The notes under the pieces were generated by a model. The model saw only the letters and a list, made by a program, of their open reading frames with translations, did no database searches and was not told where the DNA came from. A stretch of DNA of 26,195 bases from Nitrosopumilaceae archaeon (lineage in GTDB: Archaea; Thermoproteota; Nitrososphaeria; Nitrososphaerales; Nitrosopumilaceae): NCBI GenBank assembly GCA_037386265.1, contig JARRMG010000011.1, forward strand, positions 1-26,195, read 5' to 3'. This document shows, in pieces, positions 7,402 to 19,615 of the stretch (the stretch's first letter is position 1; each line of letters opens with the position of its first letter). The translations under genes were made by a program, and so were the position numbers.

Positions 7402-7611
7402 TCAAGTAGACTCCAAGAATTCAGTGGAATTTTTTGTCATCTTTTTTTCATTCTTAAAGTGGCCTTGTAATTGAAAATAGATCACACTTGCCTGAATCTT
7501 TGATATTCCAAATCTTTCTTGTAAATATTCAATCATGGTAATTTCATTCATGATTTTACTCCCATTTGATGAATCTTGAAAGTTATTAGTAAGCACAGTT
7601 AAGAATTTCAT
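7402..7611 (-). CDS. 69-aa hypothetical protein, first gene of an operator-controlled operon
   Basis: ORF track; ATG lies 20 nt after the TAAATA box of the operator-TATA module at 7632-7658. Confidence 0.55.
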   Translation of the reverse strand: MKFLTVLTNNFQDSSNGSKIMNEITMIEYLQERFGISKIQASVIYFQLQGHFKNEKKMTKNSTEFLEST

Positions 7612-7631: not shown

Positions 7632-7658
7632 TATTTAACCTTGCCTTAACAATGTTAT
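7632..7658 (-). promoter_or_regulatory. Operator-TATA module 1
   Basis: TTAACAATGTTAT at 7646-7658 (1 mismatch to the palindrome), 8-bp spacer, TAAATA on the minus strand at 7632-7637. Confidence 0.7.
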
Positions 7659-13434: not shown

Positions 13435-13605
13435 TTAGGTTTGATTTTTCATCCTCATAATAATTTGATTCAACGTGCCTGTACTATACTCTATACCGTG
13501 CTCTACCATTGAGTGTTTTTGAAACTTGTTGATAGCATCAGGTTCGTTCTCGTTTACTTCAAAATCACAGTCAAACCCATAGTTTTTGCAGATGATTTTT
13601 ACCAT
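13435..13605 (-). CDS. DUF1059-family small metal-binding protein
   Basis: CKNYGFDCDF...H...EHG motif; paralog at 17249-17413. An alternative ATG at 13620 is possible. Confidence 0.75.
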   Translation of the reverse strand: MVKIICKNYGFDCDFEVNENEPDAINKFQKHSMVEHGIEYSTGTLNQIIMRMKNQT

Positions 13606-13771: not shown

Positions 13772-14569
13772 TTAGAAAAACAAACTTTGAATCACAATAT
13801 AACCGGCAATTACAAAAAGCAATACTGCAAAAATCTTCGTTAGGTTTTCCTTTGGTATTTTATCTGTAAGCTTAATTCCAAACAAACCTCCCACTACTCC
13901 CCCAATAACAAACATTGAGGCAATCAACACATCTACGTTTCCTGCAACAAGATAACTAGAAGCAGTAGTCAATCCAAATGCACTAACTGAAACCAACGAG
14001 GTTCCAATGGCATCAATTATGCTTAACCCTCCAGAATACATCAACGTTGGAACAATCAAAAAACCTCCACCAATTCCAAAGTATCCAGCAAGTGTTCCAA
14101 CAAAAAATCCAGATAATGGAATATTCTTTTTTGATAACATTATAGTTGATTGTTTTGCAGAATTTTGAAGATCATATTTTGATGCCTTTTTTCTTAGCAT
14201 CAATACAGCTATTGTTCCCATAAAGATTGCAAAAAACAACAACAAGTTTGAAGATGGTGTTAACAATCCTAATTGTGCTCCAAGTAACGTGCCACCTATA
14301 CCAGGTATTGCAAATACAAGACCTTGTTTGAATTTAACATGGTTTTTTCTTTTATGCCCTAAAAGATTGATAGCTGCAATCACACCGACTGCCAAAGCCG
14401 AAGTTCCAATGGCACCATGAACATCACGGACTCCTACAACATATAGTAAAAGGGGAACTGCTAGAACTGAGCCACCTCCACCAATTAATCCTAGACTAAA
14501 ACCAACAAGTATTCCCGAAAATACAGAAAGAAAAATGACCAGTGGCTCTAATACAAAATCAACTGGCAT
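13772..14569 (-). CDS. TauE/SafE (TSUP) family membrane transporter
   Basis: GLIGGGGSVLAVPLL, AIGTS, duplicated GYFGIGGGFLIVP...AIGTSL; about 8 TM. Overlaps the upstream gene by 11 nt. Confidence 0.9.
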   Translation of the reverse strand: MPVDFVLEPLVIFLSVFSGILVGFSLGLIGGGGSVLAVPLLLYVVGVRDVHGAIGTSALAVGVIAAINLLGHKRKNHVKFKQGLVFAIPGIGGTLLGAQLGLLTPSSNLLLFFAIFMGTIAVLMLRKKASKYDLQNSAKQSTIMLSKKNIPLSGFFVGTLAGYFGIGGGFLIVPTLMYSGGLSIIDAIGTSLVSVSAFGLTTASSYLVAGNVDVLIASMFVIGGVVGGLFGIKLTDKIPKENLTKIFAVLLFVIAGYIVIQSLFF

Positions 14570-15962
14570 CTACAGCACATCTGTTCGGTCCAATCTCCAA
14601 GTCAGGCACATCTGATACTACCAATTCAAGTTCGCCCTTGTTGACTGCGATGATTTTCCTGTAATTCATTGGTCGTGGAAGGGTCTTTTCAACTACTTTT
14701 TTGACAAACTCGTCTTTAGGAATATCAAGCCATGGAAGGTTCTTTGATTGCTGAATTGTGGAGTAAAATGCATCATCTGTTGCTTTTACATTTTCTCCAT
14801 GATGGGTTGGGAAGACCATCGTATAATGAGGAAGCTGCAATAGCTTTTCATGCAGAGTCTCATACAACTCTTCAGTAAATTCTTCGGCTTTGTCTCGTAA
14901 ATCTGGTCGTCCAATTGACTCTACAAACAAGATATCTCCAGTAAAGACATATTTTTCATCAACTACAAAGCTCAAGCTTCCAGGTGTGTGACCAGGTGTG
15001 TGAATTACACGAAGAGTTGTTTTTCCAAATGGAATTGTCTCTCCACCAGAAACAAAGCTTGCATCAAAATCATATCTCTCATGCTTTGAGAGATACAGTT
15101 TTGCATTTGTTGCCTTTGCAAGATCCCTGGCTGAAGATACATGGTCTGCATGCTGATGAGTATCAAAGACTTTGGTTATTTTGAAACCCTTTTGCTTTGC
15201 AATTTCTACATACTTTTCAATCGGATAAAGAGGATCAATTACTATTGCCTCATTTTTAGACTCTACGATGTGGGACAAACATCCTTTTCCGACTTTCTGC
15301 ACTTGAATTACTTGCACTGGCTCATTTACTACAGTTACAGGTTTTAGCACCTGATTCCATTTTGTTAATCCACCTGCAAGAGTAGAAGAGTATATTCCGG
15401 CTCTTGCTAATGCAAAGCTTGCAACCATAGCGCGATTCCCATGCGGACAGATTGTCACAATCTCTTTGTCTTGAGGAATTTTTTGCAGGGTTTTGGGATC
15501 GAAAAGATCAGATAGTGGAATGTTTACACTGCCTGGTATTTGATATTCAGAAAACTCCTCAGTATCCCTTACGTCCAAAAGGTACAATTCATCAAGTTTT
15601 GAGATTACTTCATCAGGAGTGATAGATTTTCCAGTCTTGCCTGTTGTAAGATCTCCATTCCATCCAGAAAAGCCACCTTGCAAATAATAAGCATCAAGGC
15701 CAAATCCTGCCATCATTGCAGCAATTTCTTTTGAGATTTCTTCAGGCTCAGATATTAGTACAATTTTGGTATTTTGTGGGATTTTAGGCATGATCTTTTC
15801 TTTTGCATGAGTATCACAGACTGCATGAACAGATCCAGGAACATGAGATTCTTCAAATTGTTCAGATGTTCGTAGATCAAAGATAAGCATTGGGGTTTGC
15901 TGAGCCACATTCTGGCTTAGCTGTTGGGTTGATATTGTTAGATTTTTGGAAATTTGATTCAT
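14559..15962 (-). CDS. Rhodanese-rhodanese-metallo-beta-lactamase (persulfide dioxygenase-like) fusion; start revised from 16010
   Basis: First rhodanese (FDLR...HVPGS) has no active Cys; second (LDVR...IPGSVNIP...ICPHGNRA) has Cys. MBL motifs DTHQHADH, HTPGHTPGS, FTGDILF, GRPDL and PTHHG. Confidence 0.85.
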   Translation of the reverse strand: MNQISKNLTISTQQLSQNVAQQTPMLIFDLRTSEQFEESHVPGSVHAVCDTHAKEKIMPKIPQNTKIVLISEPEEISKEIAAMMAGFGLDAYYLQGGFSGWNGDLTTGKTGKSITPDEVISKLDELYLLDVRDTEEFSEYQIPGSVNIPLSDLFDPKTLQKIPQDKEIVTICPHGNRAMVASFALARAGIYSSTLAGGLTKWNQVLKPVTVVNEPVQVIQVQKVGKGCLSHIVESKNEAIVIDPLYPIEKYVEIAKQKGFKITKVFDTHQHADHVSSARDLAKATNAKLYLSKHERYDFDASFVSGGETIPFGKTTLRVIHTPGHTPGSLSFVVDEKYVFTGDILFVESIGRPDLRDKAEEFTEELYETLHEKLLQLPHYTMVFPTHHGENVKATDDAFYSTIQQSKNLPWLDIPKDEFVKKVVEKTLPRPMNYRKIIAVNKGELELVVSDVPDLEIGPNRCAVDAS

Positions 15963-16025
15963 GACAGATTTGGCCTTTTGTAAAATATAATCAAGAAGTT
16001 TATAGTGCAATCAAAAGCAAGCATA

Positions 16026-16570: not shown

Positions 16571-17224
16571 TTAGTTTAGACCCATTGTAGATTTAGTTAT
16601 CTTCATAATTATTCCACTAAATGAAATTGAAGATAGAAAATACCACGCCCAAAGATAAACTGCGTTTTCTTGGGGACAAATATTATTTGGATCTAGTGCT
16701 TGTTCAGCAGTACAAGTAAGATGAAAAAAATTACCAGGAAAAATATTTAGAGACACAGGAGACATGGCTACAGTATAAGTGAATAATTGAGGCAACACCA
16801 AATAAAAAATCAAAATTAGAGGAATAAAAGTAAACATCATGGGCTTCATGTTCATTTGCATCATCTCCATTGACATCTTGTTCATGTAGCTAGATTTTTT
16901 GTTTAATTCCGTAATTTTTTCTTGGTCTCTTGATCTCATAGCAGACATTCGTTCCTTCTGCCATCCCTTTGTTTCCTTCATAATGCGGTTTAGTTTTGTC
17001 TGATCAACAACTTTCCTTCTAATTATAGAGTTGATAAAATTTAACATAATTCCAAATCCAGCAACTGCAAATAATGTTGGAACGATTCCTTTTACAATTG
17101 GGTCTTCGCTACCTAAAGAACCTCTCCCATTTGCAAAAATGGCAAAAAGTCCTCCATCATTTCCTTGAAGAAAAACGGAATTTATGAAAAAGGAGAGATT
17201 AGATAAATCAAAAAAGTCTATCAT
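16571..17224 (-). CDS. EMC3/TMCO1-like (DUF106, Oxa1 superfamily) membrane protein
   Basis: TM1, basic Met-rich coiled coil (VDQTKLNRIMKE...MEMMQMNMKPMMFTFIP), and C-terminal WAWYFLSS; GGAG SD-like site upstream. Confidence 0.8.
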   Translation of the reverse strand: MIDFFDLSNLSFFINSVFLQGNDGGLFAIFANGRGSLGSEDPIVKGIVPTLFAVAGFGIMLNFINSIIRRKVVDQTKLNRIMKETKGWQKERMSAMRSRDQEKITELNKKSSYMNKMSMEMMQMNMKPMMFTFIPLILIFYLVLPQLFTYTVAMSPVSLNIFPGNFFHLTCTAEQALDPNNICPQENAVYLWAWYFLSSISFSGIIMKITKSTMGLN

Positions 17225-17248: not shown

Positions 17249-17413
17249 TTACGTGGTCTTTCTCAAAATAAATTGCATTAATGCTTCTTTAGAATAATCT
17301 ATCCCATGTTCACTTTCTGTATGGTCTCTAAACTCTTCTATGACTTGTTCAACCTCCCCTTCAGTCACAAAATCACATTCAAATCCATAATTACTACAAC
17401 TCAATTTTGTCAA
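17249..17413 (-). CDS. 54-aa DUF1059-family protein (not in ORF track)
   Basis: Manual translation from TTG: MTKLSCSNYGFECDFVTEGEVEQVIEEFRDHTESEHGIDYSKEALMQFILRKTT*. Confidence 0.8.
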   Translation of the reverse strand: MTKLSCSNYGFECDFVTEGEVEQVIEEFRDHTESEHGIDYSKEALMQFILRKTT

Positions 17414-17438
17414 TTTTGTTTATTTTGACATTTTACAT

Positions 17439-17465
17439 TTATTATACTTCGATTAACTTTGTTAA
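17439..17465 (-). promoter_or_regulatory. Operator-TATA module 2
   Basis: TTAACTTTGTTAA at 17453-17465, 8-bp spacer, TAATAA (minus) at 17439-17444; 25 nt to the DUF1059 TTG. Confidence 0.7.
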
Positions 17466-17490
17466 GTCTAACTTAACAAATTAAAATTTA

Positions 17491-17600
17491 ATGCAGAAGC
17501 AATTTTAGAGATTTGAGGCTATTCTGTCCAAAAGTACATGAAACATGGACAGACTGAATTAGGAACCTTTTTTCTCAAGATGCACAGCATGCTTCTGCAT
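17491..17600 (-). ncRNA. Candidate structured RNA A (110 nt) closed by ATGCAGAAGCA/TGCTTCTGCAT; contains a 13-aa micro-ORF
   Basis: 11-bp terminal inverted repeat (17491-17501 / 17590-17600), inner TTGAG/CTCAA and TCTGTCCA/TGGACAGA (17523-17530 / 17546-17553) stems. Starts 21 nt after the TATA of module 3. Micro-ORF MQKHAVHLEKKGS at 17559-17600. Confidence 0.55.
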
Positions 17601-17621
17601 AGATAACCATTAATTTTTTTA

Positions 17622-17648
17622 TATTTAGATAATGCTTAACTTTGTTAT
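17622..17648 (-). promoter_or_regulatory. Operator-TATA module 3
   Basis: TTAACTTTGTTAT at 17636-17648, 8-bp spacer, TAAATA (minus) at 17622-17627. Confidence 0.7.
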
Positions 17649-17675
17649 GTTAGGAGTTTTTCGATTTAACCCAAA

Positions 17676-17840
17676 TTAACTTTCTCGTTTAGGTTTTGAA
17701 TGAGCCTTTATCATGTGTTTTTTTGTTCTTTCAGGATCGGCAAATTCCATTTTACATATTTTGCATTCGTTAGTGAATTTTTGATCTCGTTTGAAAATAT
17801 TTTTTACCAGACTTTTTGTAGATGATATTTTTTGTTTCAT
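17676..17840 (-). CDS. 54-aa C2H2 zinc-finger protein (not in ORF track)
   Basis: Manual translation MKQKISSTKSLVKNIFKRDQKFTNECKICKMEFADPERTKKHMIKAHSKPKRES*, with C-x2-C-x3-F-x8-H-x4-H. Confidence 0.8.
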   Translation of the reverse strand: MKQKISSTKSLVKNIFKRDQKFTNECKICKMEFADPERTKKHMIKAHSKPKRES

Positions 17841-17861
17841 ATACTAGCAGCAAATCTTTGA

Positions 17862-17888
17862 TTATAAGGTATTGCTTAACAATGTTAA
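17862..17888 (-). promoter_or_regulatory. Operator-TATA module 4
   Basis: TTAACAATGTTAA at 17876-17888, 8-bp spacer, TTATAA at 17862-17867; 21 nt to the ATG at 17840. Confidence 0.75.
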
Positions 17889-17944
17889 TCATCTAAAAAT
17901 CTACATTCATAATAGTTAAAGAAGCATCACAATAAGTACCTTTA

Positions 17945-18280
17945 TTGGCTGATTTTAGAAAATATAGGGATAGAATATACATTGTAAAGGACATTATCCT
18001 TACTCTTTCAGAATATGGCCAGCTTAACCAAACTTCCCTTTTTAGTTTTTGTGGATTGAACATATCAAAACATAAAGGAATTTTAGATAATCTTGAAGAA
18101 AATGAGATGATCCAGAGTGAGGAAGTTTTGGAAGGAAAACGAAAGATAACATTATTCAGGGCAACTCAAAAGGGAAAGGATTTTTGCAATCAGATAATAG
18201 AACCTTATGAAAAATTGTTTCCAAGAAAAGAAAAATCCTCAGATTCTTCACATAACTTAAAATTTCTACTAATCATCTAG
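17945..18280 (+). CDS. Winged-helix DNA-binding protein
   Basis: YRDRIYIVKDII..L...GQLNQTSLFSFCGLN...ILDNLEENEMI...FRATQKGKDF is an archaeal wHTH pattern. Confidence 0.8.
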   Translation: MADFRKYRDRIYIVKDIILTLSEYGQLNQTSLFSFCGLNISKHKGILDNLEENEMIQSEEVLEGKRKITLFRATQKGKDFCNQIIEPYEKLFPRKEKSSDSSHNLKFLLII

Positions 18281-18637
18281 ATGGAATTTCTTAGCGATGG
18301 CTTCATCAAGACTATCTCTTTTCTCTAAATAATCACAATATCTTTTATTCCATGAGTTTAGGGACTGGAATTGTCTCAAGCCTGCCACCAGCCAAATTCC
18401 AGAGGTAATTATGACCATTGTCAAAAGAATAATCAGCATAAAACCAAATTCATTTTCATTTTCAATTAAAAGTAAAAATTTGGGATGTGTAATCAGGTAG
18501 GAAGAAATTCCAATTGCAAATGGAGCTAATATGAGGGCCGACAAGGAAACGCCCAACATTATACCTTTAATGTGTTGGATTTTTTCAATGAAACTATCCA
18601 TAGAACTGAGAATATCATTGGATTCTTGTTCAGGCAT
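18269..18637 (-). CDS. Two-TM membrane protein
   Basis: 122 aa with two hydrophobic helices and a charged C-terminal helix. Confidence 0.7.
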   Translation of the reverse strand: MPEQESNDILSSMDSFIEKIQHIKGIMLGVSLSALILAPFAIGISSYLITHPKFLLLIENENEFGFMLIILLTMVIITSGIWLVAGLRQFQSLNSWNKRYCDYLEKRDSLDEAIAKKFHLDD

Positions 18638-18750
18638 ACCTAATCCTTTTTAGTAGAGGTATAAAATCAGTTCTTTTCGAGTCTGAATAATCTAGTGAAA
18701 ATTTGAATTTCTGTATTCTTTGCATTCTGCATAGATTTCTGGGGTTCAGG

Positions 18751-18791
18751 TATTTACTTGATGCTTAACAATGTTAATTCAATCTTTTTAG
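18751..18791. promoter_or_regulatory. Operator-TATA module 5 (apparently bidirectional)
   Basis: TTAACAATGTTAA at 18765-18777. Minus side: 8 bp to TAAATA (18751-18756), then ATGCAGAATGCA at 18732. Plus side: 8 bp to a weaker TTTTAG (18786-18791), then 21 nt to the ATG at 18813. Confidence 0.65.
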
Positions 18792-18812
18792 TGTCAAAAT
18801 GGATTATTGATT

Positions 18813-18917
18813 ATGAGTAAGAAAGAAAAAGAAGAGGAAGAAGATCTTGCCGCTAAAAAGAATGATGATTGGTGGCGTTTGGAAAAATCTCAAATAGGTA
18901 GGAGAAAATTCGCTTAA
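18813..18917 (+). CDS. 34-aa charged microprotein (not in ORF track)
   Basis: MSKKEKEEEEDLAAKKNDDWWRLEKSQIGRRKFA*. Contains an AGGAG SD-like site for the next gene, which starts 1 nt after its stop. Confidence 0.6.
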   Translation: MSKKEKEEEEDLAAKKNDDWWRLEKSQIGRRKFA

Positions 18918-18918
18918 A

Positions 18919-19116
18919 ATGGGCTATAATTGCCATGGAGTATGTGAATTTTACAAAACTACTAGAATACCCACCTCAAAAAAATATCAAAGTGGTCAAA
19001 AAAGATGTTCACTATGTGATGTTTTTCTTGCAACTTTGAATCTCAGATGTCCATGCTGCAATTCAAAACTGAGATCAAAATCAAGAAAAAATAAAAGAGA
19101 TTTATTCTATTATTGA
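18919..19116 (+). CDS. 65-aa Cys-rich zinc-binding protein
   Basis: CHGVC...CSLC...CPCC followed by a basic tail (LRSKSRKNKR). Confidence 0.75.
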   Translation: MGYNCHGVCEFYKTTRIPTSKKYQSGQKRCSLCDVFLATLNLRCPCCNSKLRSKSRKNKRDLFYY

Positions 19117-19124
19117 GTCTCAAG

Positions 19125-19151
19125 TTAACAATGTTAAGCATGGCCTAAATA
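19125..19151 (+). promoter_or_regulatory. Operator-TATA module 6
   Basis: TTAACAATGTTAA at 19125-19137, 8-bp spacer, TAAATA at 19146-19151; 22 nt to ATGCAGAAGCA. Confidence 0.75.
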
Positions 19152-19173
19152 TCTCAATTCCTAAAAATTTTTG

Positions 19174-19291
19174 ATGCAGAAGCAATCTACTCCAAAAGGA
19201 AAAATGAAAAGCTTGGATGTAAATTCGTCCTTTACAAGTTCTCATTATATGCCTTAGACATAACTATATTTCCTAGAATCTGCTTCTGCAT
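19174..19291 (+). ncRNA. Candidate structured RNA B (118 nt) closed by ATGCAGAAGCA/TGCTTCTGCAT; contains a 27-aa micro-ORF
   Basis: Same 11-bp terminal arms as element A (19174-19184 / 19281-19291); inner AGGAAA/TTTCCT (19197-19202 / 19269-19274), TGTAAA/TTTACA (19218-19223 / 19231-19236) and TATG/CATA stems. Micro-ORF MQKQSTPKGKMKSLDVNSSFTSSHYMP at 19174-19257. Confidence 0.55.
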
Positions 19292-19314
19292 TATTATTTA
19301 ATTAGAGAAACAAG

Positions 19315-19341
19315 TTACCATTGTTAATCATGCCCTAAATA
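19315..19341 (+). promoter_or_regulatory. Operator-TATA module 7
   Basis: TTACCATTGTTAA at 19315-19327 (1 mismatch), 8-bp spacer, TAAATA at 19336-19341. Near-duplicate of module 6 (caagttaacaatgttaagcatggcctaaata vs caagttaccattgttaatcatgccctaaata). Confidence 0.7.
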
Positions 19342-19342
19342 A

Positions 19343-19615
19343 TCGGAATCAAATATAATTTATTCAGGTAATTCACCTTCGTTAACGGTTAAAAATGGAA
19401 ATCTAGTACAAATTCACCTAATTAATGAAGAAAAAAATGAAGCCTCAACAAAGTCAAAACATAATCTCAACATTGATGAATTTAATGTGCATACCGGAGA
19501 CCTAGGATATTTCCAAACAAAATCAATAACATTTCTCGCCGATAAAAATGGTACCTTTGAATACTATTGTTCTATACACCCCGAAATGAAAGGAATTCTA
19601 ACTGTAGAACCCTAA
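19343..19615 (+). pseudogene. Cupredoxin (type-1 copper) domain lacking start codon and signal peptide
   Basis: The open frame reads ...SPSLTVKNGNLVQIHLINEEK...KHNLNIDEFNVHT...TFLADKNGTFEYYCSIHPEMKGILTVEP*, with His...Cys-x2-His-x2-Met ligands. No ATG/GTG/TTG occurs before the first His ligand. Confidence 0.75.

Follow-up and report, generated by a model that had tools for sequence, protein, structure and literature searches.

The DNA considered here is a stretch of 26,195 nucleotides (contig JARRMG010000011.1, positions 1 to 26,195; hereafter the window) from a 1.34-Mb, 74%-complete metagenome-assembled genome of the Nitrosopumilaceae (GCA_037386265.1). The window is AT-rich, and DNA nearly identical to it occurs in salt-marsh, wetland and estuary metagenomes. 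Its region from 17249 to 19615, together with the gene adjoining it on the left, is proposed to be the core of an autoregulated winged helix-turn-helix (wHTH) transcription-factor regulon of this archaeal family, a reading to which a probability of roughly 0.6 is given. The cluster combines the gene for the candidate regulator, a convergent gene for a protein with two transmembrane segments (2-TM), several microprotein genes, a membrane-anchored cupredoxin and two predicted small RNAs (sRNAs), denoted here as A and B, all of them placed behind copies of one palindromic operator.

The operator and its promoter modules

The operator is a 13-bp palindrome, TTAAC-N3-GTTAA. When at most one mismatch to TTAACNNTGTTAA is allowed, the window contains 13 strand matches against 1.49 expected, a number that none of 100 shuffles reached. 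Six operators fall within 17441-19341, starting at 17453, 17636, 17876, 18765, 19125 and 19315, each of them 7-9 nt 5' of a TATA box, and a remote one starts at 7646. The initial annotation of this DNA had described six operator-TATA modules in the cluster and held that each small unit has an operator of its own. A scan for the operator followed, after 6-9 nt, by a TATA-like hexamer recovered every one of these modules with its orientation, and thus bore out the picture of separate promoters sharing a single cis-element.

The first of them, module 2 (17441-17465, minus strand), joins the operator at 17453-17465 to a TATAAT and points leftward to a DUF1059 gene, with an EMC3-like gene 24 nt behind it, while module 3 (17622-17648, minus strand), made of the operator at 17636-17648, GCAT and TAAATA, is the predicted promoter of sRNA A. 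Module 4 (17861-17888) is used on both sides of a perfect palindrome (17876-17888), the left one, with a TATAAT, for a C2H2 zinc-finger gene and the right one for the wHTH gene; on this latter side, a conserved AATAGTTAAAG box stands about 18 nt away, its distance to the operator being longer by about one helical turn. Module 5 (18751-18790) is also bidirectional and centered on a perfect palindrome (18765-18777). Its canonical side (18751-18777, GCAT plus TAAATA) is directed leftward to the 2-TM gene through a leader of ~95 nt, and its weak side (18765-18790), with a poor TTTTTA, is directed rightward to a 34-aa peptide and a zinc-ribbon protein. Module 6 (19125-19151, plus strand; operator, GCAT and TAAATA) would serve as the promoter of sRNA B, and module 7 (19315-19341, plus strand), in which the operator variant TTACCATTGTTAA is followed by TCAT and TAAATA, as that of the cupredoxin. 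The leftward and rightward units originally listed therefore stand, but the list was incomplete, since module 5 also faces the 2-TM gene, with its canonical side, and module 4 also serves the wHTH gene. As a whole, the units behind the cluster operators amount to up to nine: DUF1059 with the EMC3/Oxa1-like gene, sRNA A, C2H2, wHTH, 2-TM, the 34-aa peptide with the zinc ribbon, sRNA B and cupredoxin.

The geometry of these promoters is remarkably constant among the 35 promoter-oriented RNA genes gathered from relatives. The distance from the end of the operator to TAAATA is 8 nt in 33 of them, that from the end of TAAATA to the first A of AUGCAGAAGCA, the 5' arm of the RNA, is 22 nt in 25 (range 19-23), and GCAT follows the operator directly in 21. 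This GCAT, lying between operator and TATA box, occupies the position of the TFB-recognition element (BRE). A crude genome-wide profile of BRE and TATA sequences was too flat to grade the BRE strength of the operator promoters. The fixed distance implies a predicted transcript whose first base is also that of the closing stem of the RNA. As for the protein genes behind an operator module, their starts follow the TATA box by ~19-25 nt, and most of the mRNAs would accordingly be leaderless.

The operator is also found away from the cluster. The remote module 1 (7633-7658, minus strand), an operator variant with TTAAAT, precedes a 69-aa open reading frame (ORF) at 7402-7611. In this and other genomes, remote sites stand ahead of recurring families, namely a further membrane cupredoxin, DUF6659 and a protein of ~150 aa without assigned function, as well as second C2H2 and zinc-ribbon microproteins, secreted proteins, an alcohol dehydrogenase and a MoxR-like ATPase.

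The wHTH protein, the 2-TM gene and the membrane cupredoxin

The candidate regulator is the 111-aa wHTH protein encoded at 17945-18280 (plus strand). It matches the Pfam HTH_45 profile (PF14947) with 27.5 bits against a cut-off of 25.5, and its NCBIfam Sso10a_fam score of 28, the cut-off being 60, indicates that it does not count as an Sso10a equivalog. The occurrence of the family is limited to the Nitrososphaerota, and its sequence is strongly conserved across the class, including two invariant cysteines (C36 and C81). An AlphaFold2 model built on an alignment of 24 sequences (mean predicted local distance difference test, pLDDT, 81) shows the order H-H-H-E-E-H, corresponding to helix, helix, recognition helix, beta wing and C-terminal helix. 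Searching with this model by means of Foldseek placed the PadR subfamily-2 proteins Rv3488 and LmrR on top by TM-score (0.66-0.76, probability 1.0), followed by many MarR proteins, among them the redox-sensing OhrR, AbfR and SarZ and the metal-sensing ZitR; no relative of solved structure was found at the sequence level. The model thus shows a winged-helix fold with flanking helices, and the protein presumably dimerizes.

What connects this protein to the operator is, in the first place, their joint distribution. Among 201 Nitrosopumilaceae genomes, 14 contain at least five exact operators, and all 14 carry the cluster (partially, owing to a contig end, in G009), whereas a control with the reversed pattern gave 0-4. 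Operator sites number 2-10 in the 19 genomes whose wHTH ortholog reaches at least 68% identity. Within the genus of the window, the system is present in 4 of 17 genomes, and the rest keep only a distant wHTH paralog, with 0-1 sites. A second line of evidence came from a set of 80 wHTH loci taken from publicly available genomes (Nitrosopumilus, Nitrosarchaeum, Candidatus Nitrosopumilus salarius BD31, Nitrosotalea and Nitrososphaera). Thirty of them encode close orthologs (~66% identity or more), and in all 29 that keep at least 100 nt upstream (L080 was excluded) an operator is located 48-104 nt ahead of the wHTH start, with 2-9 operators per locus. A member of the RNA family described below is found in all assessable close-ortholog loci except L061, L065, L069 and L073. 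Several wHTH orthologs from the Nitrososphaeraceae also have an operator ahead of the gene. Because close orthologs coincide with operator-rich genomes and because the operator sits in its own promoter, the wHTH protein appears as the best candidate for the regulator that reads it, in agreement with the initial annotation, which had considered it the simplest choice.

The 2-TM gene (18269-18637, minus strand; 122 aa, no Pfam family) is convergent and overlapping with the wHTH gene; a 2-TM gene converging on the wHTH gene was observed in 78 of the 80 loci, and the family is likewise restricted to the Nitrososphaerota. The distance to its canonical promoter suggests an mRNA with a 5' leader of ~95 nt (18638-18732, minus strand), the sequence of which is not conserved in G013 or G021. 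In nearly all the distant loci of the set, the 2-TM gene has a cupredoxin gene as its immediate upstream neighbor in the same orientation, and in 40 of 46 of them this cupredoxin gene is preceded by an operator-TCATnnnC-TAAATA arrangement. The left half-site of these distant operators varies by lineage (TAAAC...GGTAA, GAAGC...GTTAA). From comparison of these loci, wHTH, convergent 2-TM and membrane cupredoxin are seen as a core conserved across ammonia-oxidizing archaea, present as a triad in nearly all of the 80, while the RNAs and the zinc-finger and zinc-ribbon microproteins are later additions in some Nitrosopumilaceae. The presence of this triad across the class, operator included, implies that the link between regulator, operator and cupredoxin is ancient, and it strengthens the connection to a copper protein that had been suspected earlier.

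The cupredoxin of the window is a membrane-anchored, type-1 protein (Cupredoxin_1, PF13473, 32.3 bits), of which the C-terminal 83 codons are present (19364-19615, plus strand). The predicted copper site, H...YYCSIHPEM, with the ligands His, Cys, His and Met, is found here and in orthologs from Nitrosopumilaceae and Nitrososphaera. The gene was initially taken for a remnant, which proved wrong: it is an assembly gap at 19363 that removed its first ~79 codons. The full gene, encoding 162 aa with an N-terminal membrane anchor, is present in G005, and relatives have about 235 extra bases at the matching position, the range being ~233-259 over G005, G009, G013 and contigs from independent marsh and estuary runs. 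Moreover, an independent marsh/estuary contig is identical on both sides of 19363 and carries 233 additional letters, the missing 5' part, exactly there. A second contig runs from 19363 into GCATAAGAAAAAAAAGG, in which the AT of the window is extended to ATG CAT AAG AAA, which is how the full-length gene begins. Among the contig pieces listed for the marsh/estuary runs, none crosses the 19363 junction as the window does.

Predicted structured RNAs and accompanying microproteins

Two of the operator modules precede sequences that, as predicted RNAs, are members of a previously undescribed family of structured sRNAs. Element A (17491-17600, minus strand; 110 nt) is a divergent paralog with a covariance-model score of 27.7 bits, and element B (19174-19291, plus strand; 118 nt) is a typical member, scoring 98.4 bits. 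Both are delimited by the same arms: the four occurrences of ATGCAGAAGCA constitute two inverted pairs, at 17491/17590 and 19174/19281. The folds of A and B are far better than those of shuffled sequences (z of -4.0 and -4.8, respectively), as are those of six relatives. A search of Rfam (Rfam 15) gave no match at gathering threshold for either element, and only two chance-level matches at E 2-3 when E values up to 5 were considered.

The exact-arm pattern places the element in 14 of the 201 Nitrosopumilaceae genomes, belonging to four genera. A covariance model trained on 14 B-type members detected 47 true-strand copies in the loci examined and none in the loci of distant wHTH relatives; at the genome level, copies were found in 12 of 151 Nitrosopumilaceae genomes and 4 of 27 genera. 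The signal is markedly strand-specific, with 98-140 bits on the promoter strand against ~28 on the opposite one.

The secondary structure is dominated by an outermost stem, P1, of 10-11 bp, which is almost invariant and joins the 5' and 3' ends through AUGCAGAAGCA and UGCUUCUGCAU, also in the divergent element A. Inside it, many members have a 5-bp helix (UAUCU/AGAUA) and then a 7-nt bulge, ACUCCAA. A further helix, P2 (helix 3; GGAAA.../...UUUCC), covaries in its distal part, and the interior contains the conserved motifs UUUCAUUUACUGCC (UUUCAU...) and CCUAAGACA, which for the most part are unpaired or lie in small hairpin loops. RNAalifold applied to plain MAFFT alignments recovered the closing stem alone until the B-type subset was aligned. 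In the alignment used for the counts, 92.3% of the pair cells are paired, compared with 36-58% when the partners are slid by 1-3 columns, and covariation scores 0.176, compared with 0.099 in shuffled alignments, none of 500 shuffles having reached the observed value. Double changes occur in ten pairs, and compensatory changes in all seven P2 pairs. Changes in P1 comprise 11 G-U cells, one C-A cell and one double change from C-G to U-A, an estimated nine or so independent events. Since a constraint at the DNA level would produce G-U and C-A equally, this excess argues that pairing is selected on the transcribed strand. The conserved, strand-specific structure with covariation corresponds to what defines a structured non-coding RNA, and the original proposal that both elements are structured was thus substantiated.

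The sequences speak against three other identities for the elements. In spite of the 5' AUG, they do not contain a conserved ORF, since indels of 1-6 nt are not multiples of three and both the frame of the conserved motif and the positions of the stops vary. They are not miniature inverted-repeat transposable elements (MITEs), as each genome has 1-3 copies at syntenic places with diverged interiors, not many near-identical copies at scattered sites. Finally, a second operator-TATA promoter (for DUF1059, C2H2 or cupredoxin) lies 22-44 nt downstream of 28 of the 35 RNA genes, which argues against a riboswitch or a cis leader. A run of at least three T follows 24 of the 35.

Copies of both elements on either side of a central regulator gave rise to the idea of a mirror-image layout, which holds for the genus of the window and for one genome (G063) of a further genus (g4). 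Orthologs of element A were found in G005, G013 and G063, so the two-RNA arrangement is a lineage feature and not the general plan, and most relatives have one RNA, on one side. The broader synteny of wHTH, operator and elements, a feature that the initial annotation recommended to check, was found in four genera, in which the RNA shares synteny with wHTH, 2-TM, C2H2, 34-aa peptide, zinc ribbon and DUF1059, these being often joined by EMC3 and cupredoxin. In a Nitrosarchaeum-type genome (G210; L134, L143 and L146), three RNA copies lie off the wHTH cluster, each with a canonical promoter, and one of them precedes a second-type C2H2 microprotein gene.

A supposed third element of the ATGCAGAA type, in the 2-TM leader, is not conserved in G013 or G021 and is probably due to chance or lineage-specific. 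Similarly, the likeness of the RNA 5' arm to the start of the cupredoxin gene (ATGCAnAAG) was rejected as a general target, because it is not conserved in other genera. The longest match of the RNAs to their own genome, 16 nt of perfect complementarity between contig C257:1317-1332 and non-conserved positions 30-45 of RNA B, is probably fortuitous.

With regard to the protein genes around the RNAs, the earlier assignments were upheld, as EMC3_TMCO1, DUF1059, HTH_45 and Cupredoxin_1 all score above their Pfam cut-offs, with the exception of the C2H2 finger, which is weak. The DUF1059 microprotein (17249-17413, minus strand; 54 aa, probably leaderless) reaches 29.8 bits against 21.1 for PF06348. 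The EMC3/TMCO1 insertase homolog (16571-17224, minus strand), with 56 bits for PF01956 against 27.1, fits the profile of the Oxa1/EMC3 superfamily; it comes after DUF1059 in many related loci and is possibly co-transcribed with it, by read-through only. The C2H2 microprotein (17676-17840, minus strand; 54 aa; E 0.003, below cut-off) adjoins the wHTH gene in ~30 loci. The charged peptide of 34-36 aa (18807-18917, plus strand), conserved in ~25 loci according to tblastn, is translationally coupled to the next gene, which encodes a Cys-rich, zinc-ribbon-like microprotein (18919-19116, plus strand; 65 aa), and neither has a Pfam family. The zinc-ribbon microprotein has at least eight paralogs in its own genome (contigs C101, C308, C171, C17, C40, C115 and C191), and in relatives some of its paralogs sit behind a TTAAC-N3-GTTAA operator (L140). 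There are also three further DUF1059 paralogs, one in the window (13453-13605, minus strand) and two on contigs C56 and C5 of the same genome; the C56 type is present in all genomes of the genus, with a different promoter and away from EMC3. Just upstream of the cluster, a 483-aa ORF (14559-16010, minus strand) resembles, judging from its translation, two rhodanese-like domains plus a metallo-beta-lactamase fold, as in persulfide dioxygenases. Profiles of defense systems and phages (PADLOC and PHROGs) gave no meaningful match, and a tie to anti-phage defense or phage genes was rejected.

Proposed mechanism, rival readings and related systems

These observations can be integrated in the following model. 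The wHTH protein, presumably as a dimer, would bind the palindrome TTAAC-N3-GTTAA (TTAACAATGTTAA) and, being placed directly upstream of the BRE position, would most likely help to recruit transcription factor B (TFB) and the TATA-binding protein (TBP), thus activating its own promoter, seven or eight others in the cluster and about six elsewhere in the genome. Two of the units would be transcribed into non-coding RNAs, 110-118 nt long and beginning with AUGCAG ~22 nt past the TATA box. A stable RNA acting in trans is suggested by the conserved loops and by the sealing of both ends; its conserved motifs might bind proteins, for which the C2H2 and zinc-ribbon microproteins are candidates, or base-pair with mRNAs. 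Candidate parts of a sensing device are the 2-TM protein and, in the wHTH protein, the pair of invariant cysteines. As to the signal, the copper or redox status of electron transfer in the membrane is the most plausible theme, if a tentative one, given that throughout the class the system is linked to a membrane blue-copper protein, that the 2-TM gene is always adjacent and that the two cysteines are invariant. It is more speculative, and on balance doubtful, that ammonia-oxidizing archaea possess in these RNAs their first dedicated riboregulators or protein-binding RNAs, sharing their signal with a blue-copper protein and zinc-finger microproteins and having their stem and loops read by microproteins or mRNAs, so that the biogenesis of copper electron transfer is tuned under an ancient, class-wide wHTH/2-TM switch that senses thiols or the membrane.

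Several observations weigh against this model. A site directly upstream of the BRE could also repress, by blocking TFB; a second wHTH paralog, of ~55% identity, is encoded in the same genome (contig C20:1112-1390), and other DNA-binding microproteins share the cluster with the wHTH gene. Among the remaining regulon members (DUF6659, alcohol dehydrogenase, MoxR-like ATPase, secreted proteins) a clear metal theme is absent, and in 30 of 58 cupredoxin orthologs, from Nitrosotalea-type loci (L089-L133), the Cys ligand is replaced by Ser (YYS..HPEM), with His and Met kept, so that copper binding of the classical kind may be absent from these proteins. Regarding the RNAs, the structure counts use an alignment fitted to the covariance model, and the closing stem is conserved in sequence beyond what pairing demands, which also fits a role at the DNA level or in protein recognition. 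A seed search of the genome's own sequence for mRNA targets of RNAs A and B returned only chance-level 11-16-mers. RNA B matched 22 sequencing runs from marsh, estuary, soil and sediment, all of them DNA or of unspecified kind; it was found in neither of the two RNA runs searched, no RNA run was listed for the 2.4-kb stretch, and an RNA run compared with the window yielded 0 contigs.

The strongest rival keeps the regulon as described and turns the wHTH protein into a repressor that, bound at or over the BRE, blocks TFB and TBP until a ligand or thiol oxidation releases it, as happens with most PadR/MarR proteins. This version, which is a serious one although less probable, agrees with the fact that the proteins nearest in fold are repressors of the PadR and MarR types, among them redox-responsive (AbfR, OhrR, SarZ) and metal-binding (Rv3488, ZitR) ones, with the two invariant cysteines and with the conserved GCAT at the BRE position. 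However, 8 nt separate the end of the operator from the TATA box, so that the operator abuts the BRE and leaves the TATA box and the transcription start site uncovered, and in the wHTH promoter it is displaced one helical turn further upstream. Archaeal activator sites, as illustrated by Ptr2, SurR-activated promoters and TFB-RF1, are usually located directly upstream of the BRE. Because the operator abuts the BRE position, the usual site for an archaeal activator, activation is most likely and is favored over repression by roughly two to one.

It is rather improbable that the operator is read by another factor, such as the second wHTH paralog, the C2H2 or zinc-ribbon microprotein or a ribbon-helix-helix protein, with the wHTH protein being a mere member of the regulon. 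The paralog on contig C20 exists, and the C2H2 and zinc-ribbon genes are as syntenic as the wHTH gene in the expanded clusters. Nevertheless, genomes with only a C20-type paralog have 0-1 operators, distant lineages keep the operator ahead of wHTH and cupredoxin with no C2H2, 34-aa or zinc-ribbon gene nearby, and a 13-bp palindrome fits a wHTH dimer. The C20 paralog is followed, on the same strand, by a distant 2-TM-like ORF, and its type occurs in genomes devoid of the operator system. Lastly, the notion that the inverted-repeat elements act as DNA (MITE-like, cruciform, or as insulating or terminating protein sites) or as tiny leaderless ORFs accounts for their nearly invariant 11-nt arms, for their initial ATG, leaderless translation being common in ammonia-oxidizing archaea, and for the 28 of 35 wedged between two promoters, but it is made very improbable by their low, syntenic copy number with diverged interiors, the fixed distance to the TATA box, the 11 to 1 strand-specific G-U bias of the closing stem, the covariation of P2 and the varying frames and stops.

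The regulator proposed here resembles PadR subfamily-2 and MarR proteins (Rv3488, LmrR, OhrR, AbfR) and HTH_45/Sso10a proteins in size (~110 aa), in the succession of N-terminal helix, wHTH and C-terminal helix, in the TM-scores of 0.71-0.76 to Rv3488 and LmrR, in a palindromic candidate target and in having a site in its own promoter. It departs from its PadR/MarR relatives in that identity is only 15-24%, in the location of the candidate site upstream of BRE and TATA box in an archaeal promoter, and in the two invariant cysteines. Archaeal regulons with a palindrome upstream of BRE and TATA box are known for SurR (GTTn3AAC, in Pyrococcus), Ptr2 and the TrmB family, SurR being a redox-switched wHTH protein. 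As in these, one short palindrome occupies a fixed position of the core promoter in a dozen promoters, including that of the regulator. The differences are the protein family, the AAC-N3-GTT core of the motif and the presence of dedicated structured sRNAs and many microproteins, in a system known here from sequence.

Bacteria have stress regulons, such as Fur-RyhB, sigmaE-MicA/RybB and OxyR-OxyS, that place proteins and sRNAs under the control of a single factor. In the present case, too, the sRNA genes carry the operator and promoter of the protein genes, which suggests a post-transcriptional arm; unlike in the bacterial regulons, the setting is archaeal, there is no Hfq-type context, and an invariant terminal stem seals both RNA ends. 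When compared with Rfam families, C/D-box sRNAs and MITEs, the elements are similar in size (~100-130 nt) and in their terminal inverted repeats, but they lack the C/D boxes or kink-turn of C/D-box sRNAs and, in contrast to MITEs, are syntenic and of low copy number. The published copper-limitation promoter motifs of Nitrososphaera viennensis (PMC7785015) differ from the TTAAC-N3-GTTAA operator. In the searchable literature, the operator string appears in no paper, and no description was found of thaumarchaeal sRNAs, of this regulon or of this regulator-operator pair in ammonia-oxidizing archaea. Transcription-factor regulons that include sRNAs are a known kind, and this factor family, its operator, the RNA family and the coupling to a cupredoxin throughout the class appear to be undescribed.

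Ammonia-oxidizing archaea have a major part in nitrogen cycling worldwide and rely strongly on copper proteins. Since cultured relatives carry the cluster, the loci including one on a contig of Candidatus Nitrosopumilus salarius BD31, experiments are feasible. For these organisms, the locus supplies a testable pairing of a transcription factor with its DNA site, which is kept throughout the class and connected with a membrane blue-copper protein, as well as a defined microprotein regulon and a new family of structured RNAs, the start, end and fold of which are sharply predicted.

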